Of a DNA stretch of 64,000 bases, positions 27,561-42,694 are shown in pieces (within the stretch, counting starts at the first letter, position 1; each line of letters begins with the position of its first letter). Under the pieces are notes generated by a model. It ran no database searches. It had not been told where the DNA came from and worked only from the letters and a program-made list of their open reading frames with translations. Both the position numbers and the translations under genes were made by a program. The DNA is from Escherichia coli (GTDB lineage: Bacteria; Pseudomonadota; Gammaproteobacteria; Enterobacterales; Enterobacteriaceae): NCBI RefSeq assembly GCF_003334765.1, contig NZ_QOWT01000013.1. One strand, written 5' to 3'.

Positions 27561-27574
27561 ATGATCTATATCAA
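27561..27574 (+). promoter_or_regulatory. FNR-type binding site in the focA-pflB promoter region
   Basis: aTGAT-CTAT-ATCAA matches the TTGAT-N4-ATCAA FNR consensus; a TATAAT hexamer lies at 27584-27589 in an AT-rich region upstream of focA. Confidence 0.55.
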
Positions 27575-35081: not shown

Positions 35082-36230
35082 TTACACGTGAGCAACGGGT
35101 TTCGGCGTATGACCGGCGTTGCGCAGCAGCATCAGCAAATAGATAAACGATACGCTGGCGATCATGATAAACAATAAATTATCGGAGAAATTCTGCATTA
35201 GCATAGCGGTAAATGACGGGCCAAGCAGACTTCCCACAGTATAGCTCAACAGTAAGGCCTGGTTCATCGCCACCAGTTGATGATGTTCAACTTTCTCGCA
35301 AGCCCATGCCATCGCCACCGGATATAGCGTAAAGCCAGCGGCACCGAGGATGAATAACGCTGGGGCCATCGCCGCCTGGCTAAGCATCGCGATACTGCCG
35401 AGAATGACGACAAAGACCTGAACACGCAACACCAGCAGTCGACCAAACTTATCCGCCAGACGTCCAATCGGCCATTGTCCAAGGATACCCGCACTGACCA
35501 GTACCGCCATCCAGAAACCAATGCTGGCATTGCTCACCCCTTTGTGATTGAGGTACAGCGGCATCAGGCCATATAGAGATCCCAGAACGATTCCTGAGAT
35601 AATGCAGCCATTCACGCCAAGCCGCGCCTGACGGAGTTTTAGCATTGACGTAATTGACGTCGAATCATGGTTTTCAGCCTGCTGATTCAGCACACGCGTA
35701 AACAACAGCGGTAAGATCCCTGCCAACGTCAAACCTGTAACCCACGGCAATACGGACATCAGCTCGGTTGAAACTTTGCTGACCAGTAACTGGCCTAAAA
35801 ACGTTCCCACGTAATAAACCATCATATACGCAGCAAGCAAACGCCCACGGTTACGTGACGTCCCACTGCACATCAGCGCGCTCTCAACAACCACCCAAAT
35901 CATGGCACAGCCGACGCCCGCGACAAAACGCCAAGCCAACCAGCTCCAGAATCCAATCATCAGGCCAAGGCCGGCACAGCCAGCGGCAAAAATGAAGGAG
36001 GCCAGATAATAGCTGCGGTTAAAGCCAATGCGCTTAATGACATACCCTGTCAGCAATGTACCGACAAGGTTGCCGGTAAAATAGGATGAGCTGACAACGC
36101 CTACCTGCCATGTGGACATGTGTTCCTGGGCGAGCCAAAGCGGCACGAGTGTATTTAACACCGCAATCGCCAGAGTCAACAAAAGCAGGCCAGACAGCAA
36201 AAGCATGACAGGCTGGGTATACGTGGACAT
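35082..36230 (-). CDS. ycaD: MFS transporter YcaD
   Basis: 382-aa ORF with about 12 hydrophobic segments. Confidence 0.9.
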
Positions 36231-38697: not shown

Positions 38698-41142
38698 TTA
38701 CACCTTTTCAACCTGAACAAGGTTTGTATGTGACGGATTCCCCTTAGCGAGAGGAGACGGACGTTGAGTGGTCAGTACGTTAATACAACCACCCTTATCG
38801 ACACGTTTTGCATCCGGGTCATACCAGGCACCTTCACCCAGTGCGACCACACCCGGCATCATTCGTGGCGTCACTTTCGCCTCAATATGAACCTCACCAC
38901 GATCGTTAAAGATCCTGACTTTATCGCCGTTGTGGATACCGCGTTTTTGGGCATCAAGCGGGTTGATCCACATTTCCTGACGGCAAGCCGCTTTCAGCAC
39001 ATCAACGTTGCCGTAAGTTGAGTGAACGCGAGATTTATAGTGGAAACCTGTAAGCTGCAGCGGATACTGTTTGTTCAGCGGATCCTGATAACTTTCAAAG
39101 CCCGGCGTGTAGATCGGCAGTGGATCGATCACATCGCCTTCAGGCAATTCCCAGGTAGCGGCAATGTCAGCCAGCGCCTGCGAATAAATCTCAATTTTGC
39201 CCGATGGCGTAGTCAGTGGGTTTGCCTGCGGATCTTCACGGAAGGCTTTATAAGCAACGTGATGCCCTTGTGGGTCGCGCTTTTTAAAGATCCCCTGCTT
39301 GCGGAACTCTTCAAACGTTGGCAGTTCAGGAATCGCTTCCCGCGACTGGGCATACAGATGCCGCATCCACTCTTCCTGGGTACGGCCTTCAGTAAACTGT
39401 TGCTCAACGCCAAGACGTTTTGCCAGTTCGCTGGTCATTTCATAGATGGTCTTACATTCAAAGCGCGGTTTAATCACCTGATCGTTGAAAATCACGTAAG
39501 ACATATTCCCGCAGGATGCATCCAGCGCAAAGTCCATCTGTTCGGAAGCGGTGCAGTCAGGCAGCAGGATGTCAGCATATTTCGCCGATGAGGTCATGTG
39601 GCAGTCGATAACCACAATCAGCTCGCACTTCTTATCATCCTGAAGGATTTCATGGGTACGGTTGATTTCAGAATGCTGGTTAATCAGGCAGTTACCGGCA
39701 TAGTTCCAGATCATTTTGATCGGCACATCCAGCTTATCTTTCCCGCGTACACCATCACGCAGCGCCGTCATTTCCGGGCCACGTTCAATGGCATCGGTCC
39801 ACATAAACATCGAAATGCTGGTCTGGATCGGGTTTTCCAAGGTCGGCATACGGACAAACGGTAAGCTGTATGAACCTTCACGCGCGCCGCTGTTGCCTCC
39901 GTTAATACCAACGTTACCGGTCAGAATCGCCAGCATCGAGATAGCACGGGTTGCGATTTCACCGTTAGCGTGACGCTGCGGGCCCCATCCCTGGCTGATA
40001 AACGCCGGTTTGGTACTACCGATTTCACGAGCCAATTTGATGATTTTGTCTGCCGGAACACCAGTGATTTGCGAGGCCCATTCCGGCGTTTTAGCCACGC
40101 CATCTGGCCCTTCACCCAGAATATAAGCTTTATAGTGGCCATTTTTCGGCGCACTGGCTGGCAGGGTTTTCTCATCGTAGCCAACGCAATATTTATCGAG
40201 GAATGCCTGATCCACCAGGTTTTCAGTGATCATGACGTACGCCAGACCGTTAACCAGTGCGGCATCTGTTCCCGGACGAATAGGGATCCACTCATCTTCG
40301 CGCCCGGCACCGGTGTCGGTATAGCGCGGATCGATGATGATCATGCGGGCATTAGATTTCTGGCGTGCCTGTTCAAGATAGTAAGTCACCCCACCGCCAC
40401 TCATTCGCGTTTCGCCAGGGTTATTACCAAACAGCACTACCAGCTTACTGTTTTCGATATCCGACGGGCTGTTGCCATCTGCCCAGCCGCCGTAGGTATA
40501 GTTCAAACCTTCCGCAATTTGCGCGGAGGAGTAGTCGCCGTAATGGTTCAGATAGCCGCCGCAGCAGTTCATCAGCCGCGCGACCAGGGTATTTCCCGGC
40601 GGCCAGGAGCGGGTCATGGTGCCGCCCAGCGTACCGGTGCCATAGTTCAGATAGATAGACTCGTTGCCGTACTCTTTGATCAGGCGCTGCATATTGGTCG
40701 CGATGATGTCGTAGGCTTCTTCCCAGCTAATGCGCTCGAATTTGCCTTCACCGCGCGCCCCGACTCGTTTCATCGGATATTTCAGGCGGTCCGGATTGTA
40801 GACACGGCGACGCATGGAACGCCCACGCAGGCAGGCGCGAACCTGGTGCAGGCCGTCGTAATTGTCATCGCCGGTATTGTCCGTTTCGACATATTTGATT
40901 TCACCGTCCACGACGTGCATACGTAGCGGGCAGCGACTACCACAGTTAACTGTACAGGCGCTCCAGATAACCTTTTCGTCTGATTTTGTTGGAATGGCGC
41001 TATCGACAGCGTGCGCAATCCGACTAAAAGGTAATGTTAATGCGCTGCTGGCCATTGCCAGGCCGCCGATCGCTGTCGTTTTTACCAAACCACGGCGACT
41101 CACCTCAGCAGCCAATACCGCATCAGGGATTTTCGTTTTCAT
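38698..41142 (-). CDS. dmsA: DMSO reductase catalytic subunit DmsA (molybdopterin, Tat signal)
   Basis: 814-aa ORF; twin-arginine signal (SRRGLVKTTAIGGLA) and N-terminal Cys cluster. Confidence 0.97.
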   Translation of the reverse strand: MKTKIPDAVLAAEVSRRGLVKTTAIGGLAMASSALTLPFSRIAHAVDSAIPTKSDEKVIWSACTVNCGSRCPLRMHVVDGEIKYVETDNTGDDNYDGLHQVRACLRGRSMRRRVYNPDRLKYPMKRVGARGEGKFERISWEEAYDIIATNMQRLIKEYGNESIYLNYGTGTLGGTMTRSWPPGNTLVARLMNCCGGYLNHYGDYSSAQIAEGLNYTYGGWADGNSPSDIENSKLVVLFGNNPGETRMSGGGVTYYLEQARQKSNARMIIIDPRYTDTGAGREDEWIPIRPGTDAALVNGLAYVMITENLVDQAFLDKYCVGYDEKTLPASAPKNGHYKAYILGEGPDGVAKTPEWASQITGVPADKIIKLAREIGSTKPAFISQGWGPQRHANGEIATRAISMLAILTGNVGINGGNSGAREGSYSLPFVRMPTLENPIQTSISMFMWTDAIERGPEMTALRDGVRGKDKLDVPIKMIWNYAGNCLINQHSEINRTHEILQDDKKCELIVVIDCHMTSSAKYADILLPDCTASEQMDFALDASCGNMSYVIFNDQVIKPRFECKTIYEMTSELAKRLGVEQQFTEGRTQEEWMRHLYAQSREAIPELPTFEEFRKQGIFKKRDPQGHHVAYKAFREDPQANPLTTPSGKIEIYSQALADIAATWELPEGDVIDPLPIYTPGFESYQDPLNKQYPLQLTGFHYKSRVHSTYGNVDVLKAACRQEMWINPLDAQKRGIHNGDKVRIFNDRGEVHIEAKVTPRMMPGVVALGEGAWYDPDAKRVDKGGCINVLTTQRPSPLAKGNPSHTNLVQVEKV

Positions 41143-41312
41143 AATGGCTCACTCAAGCTTGCTCACGATTGATTCCAGTAACAAACCGTATTGTGTAATT
41201 ATTTCTATAGCAGTTCGCTATATAGGCTTGTATACATCGAATAATTTGAAAATCAAAGAGATAGGTAGATTTTCACTCGAAAGTAGTATTACGTGTAAGT
41301 GAGGAGTAATTA

Positions 41313-41326
41313 TTGTTCGGTATCAA
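41313..41326 (-). promoter_or_regulatory. Candidate FNR site upstream of dmsA
   Basis: Minus-strand sequence TTGATACCGAACAA matches the TTGAT-N4-ATCAA class; about 170 bp upstream of the dmsA ORF start, so a long leader is implied. Confidence 0.5.
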
Positions 41327-41333
41327 AGGGAGA

Positions 41334-41360
41334 CAAAAAAAGCGCCCGCAGGCGCTTTTT
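41334..41360. terminator. Bidirectional intrinsic terminator downstream of serS
   Basis: A-run, then AGCGCC-CGCA-GGCGCT hairpin, then T5. Confidence 0.8.
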
Positions 41361-41380
41361 AGATTCAGAAAAATTGGGTA

Positions 41381-42694
<1,314 letters not shown>

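Follow-up and report, generated by a model that had tools for sequence, protein, structure and literature searches.

The FNR-like sequence between serS and dmsA in the window (the whole 64,000-nucleotide stretch of Escherichia coli DNA that was analysed) is almost certainly the operator through which FNR activates dmsA P1, a class II sigma70 promoter that depends on FNR and drives dmsABC, the operon for anaerobic DMSO reductase. The promoter has an inverted repeat centred at about -41.5 and a poor -35 element, and published data add in vivo occupancy by FNR and the dependence of sigma70 binding and expression on FNR and on anaerobic growth. The sequence, its conservation, the promoter geometry and the agreement of coordinates come from the present analysis, while the occupancy by FNR, the dependence on FNR and on anaerobic growth and the placement at -41.5 are taken from the literature. 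dmsA P1 is already known and has mutagenesis, footprints and ChIP data behind it, and there is little new in this site. Earlier work on the promoter reportedly includes that of Eiglmeier (1989), McNicholas (1998), Lamberg & Kiley (2000) and Bearson (2002).

The serS-dmsA spacer and its FNR box

The minus strand of the window carries the gene order rarA-serS-dmsABC of E. coli, with dmsB next after dmsA on that strand. The genes and the spacer that separates them are as follows.

41381..42673, minus strand: serS coding sequence, seryl-tRNA synthetase, upstream of dmsA on the same strand (list of open reading frames; annotated as serS in identical E. coli records)
41383..41381, minus strand: serS stop codon
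41380..41143: serS-dmsA spacer, 238 bp
38698..41142, minus strand: dmsA coding sequence, DMSO reductase subunit A, with a Tat signal peptide at its start (list of open reading frames; annotated in identical records)
41326..41313, minus strand: FNR box TTGATaccgAACAA, matching TTGATN4ATCAA at 9 of 10 positions, -48 to -35 with its centre at -41.5

A 501-bp stretch with the FNR box was 100% identical to many complete genomes in which the flanking serS and dmsA are annotated, and the 238-bp spacer was 100% identical to positions 940,721-940,958 of K-12-type records. Among 5426 complete E. coli genomes, 5422 carried the spacer at an identity of at least 95%, and in 4273 the 63-bp promoter core was 100% identical. 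In the Escherichia variants examined, changes were confined to the 4-base spacer of the box (ACCG, ACCA or ATCA) or to the stretch between the box and the -10, with both half-sites and the -10 hexamer unchanged. The E. coli genome searches also returned seven matches to the spacer or core promoter on plasmids, and some genomes carried two to four copies. For comparison with published coordinates an offset of 777 at dmsA was used between NC_000913.3, where dmsA starts at 940,959, and NC_000913.2, where it starts at 940,182 (Kim 2012 supplement).

Positions 41313-41326 read TTGTTCGGTATCAA on the plus strand and TTGATACCGAACAA on the minus strand, with a single mismatch to TTGATN4ATCAA. The original prediction had named an FNR-like site at this position on the minus strand, about 170 bp upstream of the dmsA open reading frame, and the window sequence bears out its coordinates, strand and letters as well as its distance, the promoter-proximal edge of the box lying 171 bp and its centre 177.5 bp from the first base of the dmsA start codon (41142). 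Mapped by us onto NC_000913.2, the box occupies 939,998-940,011. In a pattern scan of the spacer that allowed up to two mismatches the box was the only FNR-like sequence, and a CRP site at the same position was rejected because the half-sites are of the TTGAT type and not GTGA. The wild-type dmsA site is said to be given in Bearson 2002 as TTGATaccgAACAA. A full-text literature search for this exact 14-mer returned no match, as did a search of the Myers 2013 supplements for the coordinates of the box.

Taken as a bare motif, the box does no better than chance in the window. When a single mismatch was allowed, TTGATN4ATCAA matched four times in 64 kb against 2.56 expected, a count equalled in 24 of 100 shuffles, and about 0.01 such matches are expected by chance in the 238-bp spacer. 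What raises the box above chance is its conservation, its fixed place in the promoter and its published occupancy in vivo. Among the other matches in the window, one with a single mismatch (ATGATCTATATCAA, 27561-27574) is located 67 bp ahead of the focA start codon and coincides with a published FNR ChIP peak at focA-pflB (953,746, U00096.2); the remaining two, at 35277 and 60576, are without an FNR ChIP peak in the published data.

Promoter geometry and NarL heptamers

Downstream of the box, the following elements were placed on the minus strand relative to a predicted start.

41290..41285, minus strand: -10 hexamer AATACT, -12 to -7, at a fixed ungapped offset from the FNR box
41278, minus strand: inferred start of dmsA P1 (G), from the position of the -10 and the published -41.5 assignment
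41302..41308, minus strand: NarL heptamer TACTCCT, -30 to -24, an exact match to TACYYMT in a pattern scan
41261..41267, minus strand: second NarL heptamer TACCTAT, +12 to +18, an exact match to TACYYMT in a pattern scan

Positions -35 to -30 read ATAATT, and a recognisable -35 element is absent. With the final T of AATACT set at -7, the centre of the box would fall at -41.5 from 41278, a predicted start base that corresponds to 940,823 in NC_000913.3 and to 940,046 in NC_000913.2. This register is supported by a secondary table (Myers 2013) and by the geometry computed here. A consensus promoter scan returned no promoter in the class II register. Its single promoter-like match, on the minus strand at 41336..41309 (TTGTCT-16-AATAAT), was rejected as a second promoter, as one match equals chance expectation and its -35 is not conserved.

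Conservation across Enterobacteriaceae

Eighty Enterobacteriaceae loci encoding DmsA were fetched, with serS immediately upstream of dmsA in essentially all of them, and 77 of their spacers could be anchored on the box. All 77 carried TTGA[TC]-N4-NNCAA at 7-11 nt after the T-run of the terminator, and in 74 of the 77 the same six columns of the ungapped stack held [A/G/C]ATACT or AATATT, while the distance from box to ATG varied between 118 and 185 bp. The conservation of TTGA and CAA in a stack anchored on the box is partly circular, and the spacers were therefore also aligned with MAFFT without reference to the motif. In that alignment, identity to the window was 0.93 for the terminator, 0.93 for TTGAT, 0.81 for AACAA and 0.95 for AATACT, against 0.45 for the gap between terminator and box, 0.46 for the stretch from box to -10 and 0.44-0.54 for the leader. 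Such a pattern is the classic phylogenetic footprint of a protein-binding site with a -10 element at constant spacing.

The two half-sites of the box are not equally preserved. The promoter-proximal one was never ATCAA in the 77 species, in which it read AACAA, GACAA, AGCAA, GGCAA, CGCAA or CTCAA, and this absence distinguishes dmsA from narG-type promoters. Within this half-site (41313-41317) only CAA is fixed, and the TA that directly follows it is also highly conserved. The non-consensus form suggests that there may be selection for a weakened, sub-maximal half-site, or for a composite contact between FNR and the -35 region.

The dmsA leader

The predicted start and the annotated ATG together define a long leader, in which one palindrome stands out.

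41143..41278, minus strand: dmsA 5' leader, 136 nt from the predicted start to the annotated ATG
41239..41216, +40 to +63, centre +51.5: palindrome CGATGTATAcaagccTATATAGCG, candidate ModE operator, a conserved island with per-base identity mostly 0.8-0.9

In other species the equivalent of this leader measures 77-144 nt. Its fold is unremarkable (z = -0.96) and an Rfam search of its dmsA strand gave no match, and on these grounds a structured leader or riboswitch was rejected. The main conserved island of the leader is CGATGTATAcaagccTATATAGCG, which resembles what we take to be the ModE consensus, TATAT-N7-TAYAT, and is a candidate ModE operator lying downstream of the start. PMC12096835 cites ModE as a regulator of dmsA.

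Immediately 5' of the dmsA start codon, the strings GTGAGCAA (41166..41159) and GAGTGAG (41154..41148) were nearly invariant in the 77 species. Their conservation exceeds what a Shine-Dalgarno sequence needs, and they could form a site for sRNA pairing or for translational control; dmsABC is a reported or predicted target of RyhB (PMC4676285). In species with shorter leaders, sequence has been lost between the CGATGTATAcaagccTATATAGCG island and the GTGAGCAA...GAGTGAG island. A further palindrome, TTTGATTTTCAAA at 41245-41257 (+22 to +34), was present only in Escherichia sequences and was rejected as an FNR box because its TTGA and TCAA half-sites are 3 bp apart and not 6.

The serS terminator

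Upstream of the box, folding and conservation together define the terminator of serS.

41335..41360, minus strand: serS intrinsic terminator, composed of A5, GCGCC (41355..41351), loop tgcg, GGCGC (41346..41342) and T7 (41341..41335)

The terminator begins 21 nt past the serS stop, and its hairpin and T7 occupy -77 to -57 relative to the dmsA start, with T7 at -63 to -57. On the serS strand the hairpin folds at -16.3 kcal/mol (z = -3.6), and its 5-bp GC stem is extended by A-U pairs and followed by U7, the structure of an intrinsic terminator. The stem was invariant in 77 of 77 species, and the T-run measured 6-9 nt in all 77 and 7 nt in 63 of them. A consensus terminator scan reported none at 41335-41360 despite the GC hairpin and U7, which we attribute to the loss of the T-run into the A/U-extended stem; scanners may systematically miss terminators in which an A-run and a T-run can pair. 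The 3'-end tables of Adams 2021 list internal ends only for serS, with no end at the U-tract of the terminator. The terminator probably insulates an oxygen-regulated operon from constitutive serS transcription.

The original prediction had set the FNR site just inside a bidirectional serS terminator, with signals for termination and anaerobic activation tightly packed. The packing holds, since only the 8 bases gtctccct separate the T-run from TTGAT here and 7-11 bp separate them in the 77 related species, and the constancy of this gap fits, but does not prove, a positional constraint that may act on the two elements. The placement has to be corrected: the box lies outside the terminator and downstream of it, 8 bases past the T-run. 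The term bidirectional is apt for the symmetric shape of A-run, hairpin and T-run, and goes too far in other respects, as there is no convergent gene, the transcript of a predicted antisense RNA, STnc130, has gone undetected and the run in the plus direction is the less constrained. Bidirectional terminators between convergent genes have the same shape, a GC hairpin with an A-run and a T-run that can fold on both strands, whereas serS and dmsA are co-directional and the two runs are under unequal constraint, the A-run 5' of the stem (the U-run of the plus direction) measuring 3-7 nt and being reduced to 3-4 nt in 18 of the 77 species. This A-run may strengthen the serS terminator. An opposite-strand transcript ending at the hairpin, by which a bidirectional terminator is defined, was absent from the data examined, and other growth conditions might yield one.

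In E. coli JNEC-KY203 a P2-like prophage (ogr, late control gpD and two hok/gef genes; locus L083, 2501-5044) starts right after spacer position 44, at the T-tract, and the remaining spacer, including the FNR box, was not found there by megablast. The serS terminator may serve as a phage attachment site.

A predicted antisense RNA over the promoter

The same block of sequence is matched on its opposite strand by an Rfam family.

41233..41367, plus strand: Rfam RF02084 'STnc130', predicted sRNA, full-length match of 140.1 bits against a gathering score of 55, antisense to dmsA P1

Read in the plus direction, the match spans the leader from +46 upstream, the -10, the FNR box and the terminator, and an antisense STnc130 match was also found in 18 of 19 other loci from other genera. 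The conserved block might accordingly be, or also be, an antisense sRNA whose transcription would begin near 41233 on the plus strand and end at the hairpin (U5), which would make the terminator truly bidirectional and would allow interference with dmsA P1. STnc130 is the one published proposal under which the hairpin, read on the plus strand, has a function. Besides the full-length match and its recurrence in other genera, such an RNA is favoured by the hairpin and U-run, which fold on the plus strand at -14.9 kcal/mol, and by the A-run of at least 3 nt that precedes the stem in all 77 species. We nevertheless regard it as improbable. In Table S3 of Sittka 2008, STnc130 (serS/dmsA, -> <- ->) is listed in class V, 'previously predicted', with 0 reads in the control library of Salmonella and 0 in the Hfq co-IP library, and its one Northern test is entered as 'nd', no detectable transcript, with a probe (TACCGGACAATAATCCCTAC) that overlaps the FNR box; in Barquist 2013 it is still a 'putative sRNA'. 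A consensus scan of 40900-41600 found no plus-strand promoter-like site, the sole -10-like string, TATATA (41219-41224), being without a -35 and forming half of the ModE-like palindrome, and Kim 2012 lists no start on either strand from 939,708 to 944,839. The U-run in the plus direction is short and variable next to the 6-9 nt of the serS direction, and the Rfam structure consists of a 2-bp helix and the invariant terminator hairpin, whose stem is uninformative on covariation.

All of the conservation in the block can be put down to three elements, the promoter of dmsA, the ModE-like site and the terminator of serS, and the conserved columns of the family fall on the dmsA -10, the FNR box, the ModE-like palindrome and the terminator. 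STnc130 and the dmsA block are the same 135 bp on opposite strands, and the family rests on computational prediction; on the simplest reading, STnc130 is these three elements read from the wrong strand and not an RNA gene. The match is worth flagging to annotators, as automated pipelines will label this region an sRNA.

A second use of the serS terminator was also considered, in which T7 acts both as the U-tract of serS and as an UP-like contact for alpha-CTD at dmsA, and/or the hairpin ends a conditional antisense STnc130 that interferes with P1. The UP-like contact comes to mind because T7 lies directly upstream of bound FNR, where alpha-CTD docks at class II promoters. We hold dual use, in either form, to be unlikely.

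Occupancy in vivo and the position from which FNR acts

Using start sites from EcoCyc or Kim, Myers 2013 (PMC3688515) describe dmsABC as directly activated by FNR through one FNR motif at -41.5. Their FNR peak, mapped to U00096.2, has its centre near 939,992 according to Table S5, where it is credited to each of the four peak callers and to earlier ChIP-chip with a PWM ln(p) of -10.34, and at 940,035 according to Table 1. The same study (PMC3688515) gives a sigma70 peak at 940,050 flagged 'Anaerobic' (values 30.77 and 447.51) and scores dmsABC as 'Activated' in all three expression data sets. In an aerobic-versus-anaerobic table, the ratio for dmsA is 0.018. Federowicz 2014 report an Fnr-bound region at 939,760-940,277 upstream of dmsABC, classed as 'Activation, Known'. 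After coordinate mapping, this region and the Myers 2013 peaks bracket the box at 939,998-940,011; the distance between the predicted start and the anaerobic sigma70 peak is 4 bp, and the FNR peaks are centred 12-30 bp away from the box, an agreement within ChIP resolution and not base-precise.

Older sources point the same way as far as their quoted text goes: a sentence quoted from Bearson 2002 states that the dmsA promoter prefers -41.5, the title of Lamberg & Kiley 2000 names dmsA as a class II promoter, and a further quoted sentence has NarL protecting a dmsA region that contains the FNR and RNA polymerase sites, with repression as the outcome. The aerobic start-site table of Kim 2012 has no P1 start, as expected for an FNR-dependent promoter, and so lends P1 no positive confirmation; only starts of 2-3 reads inside serS are assigned to dmsA in it.

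The original prediction had put the site at about -41.5 from the dmsA start, with a long leader to follow, and had named FNR ChIP and mapped start sites as the data to compare it with. The conserved spacing to the -10, the -41.5 of Myers 2013, the FNR ChIP and the anaerobic sigma70 peak agree on this position. FNR is found where it was expected to be, with peaks within 12-30 bp of the box (Myers 2013) and the box inside the bound region of Federowicz 2014 (939,760-940,277), and the leader comes to 136 nt from the predicted start. By all available evidence there is no start site incompatible with -41.5, a figure for which the start is predicted from the sequence and the position comes from a secondary table and from geometry.

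FNR could in principle bind the box and act from another position, as a class I activator (-61.5 or further) of a start downstream, or as a repressor of, or roadblock to, serS read-through. ChIP, with a resolution of 12-30 bp, is too coarse to set the register, and the AT-rich leader holds other -10-like strings that might be used. The hexamer at class II spacing is the only element at a fixed distance from the box, however, and the sequence downstream of it is poorly conserved and tolerates indels; moreover, -41.5 is the position listed by Myers 2013 (PMC3688515) and preferred in the sentence quoted from Bearson 2002, and the anaerobic sigma70 peak falls 4 bp from the class II start. An action from elsewhere is, in our judgement, very improbable. 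A chance FNR-like sequence without function, a reading allowed by a motif count in the window that equals random expectation and by the matches at 35277 and 60576 that have no FNR ChIP peak, is effectively refuted by conservation in 77 species whose flanking sequences diverge, by the constant distance to the -10, by FNR ChIP in three studies and by FNR-dependent expression.

A model for dmsA P1 and its relation to known promoters

With the box as the class II operator of dmsA P1, regulation would proceed as follows, by steps that are well established at other promoters of this class. In anoxia, a [4Fe-4S] FNR dimer would bind TTGATaccgAACAA at -41.5 and, taking the place of the absent -35, would recruit RNA polymerase to AATACT. 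At class II FNR promoters the downstream subunit of the dimer touches sigma70 region 4 and the upstream subunit touches alpha-CTD, and activation needs the FNR activating regions AR1 and AR3. Transcription from about 41278 would then yield the 136-nt leader ahead of dmsA. In the presence of nitrate, phospho-NarL on the heptamers that overlap the core promoter would bring about repression, and ModE would add a dependence on molybdate, the leader carrying the ModE-like palindrome. The serS terminator, ending 8 bp upstream of the box, would keep serS transcription out of dmsABC.

Compared with the dmsA P1 already described in E. coli, the site in the window is at the same locus and has the same sequence, with a box at -41.5, FNR activation, NarL repression and ModE dependence, and no difference was found. 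With the class II FNR promoters of narG, nirB, ydfZ and ynjE it shares a -41.5 box, a weak or absent -35 and sigma70 (Myers 2013 Table 1, PMC3688515). It departs from narG in its use of NarL, which at narG co-activates from upstream with IHF, whereas at dmsA the NarL heptamers overlap the core promoter and repress. What the comparison of species brings out is a module of terminator, FNR box and -10 that is kept in one rigid register across the Enterobacteriaceae.
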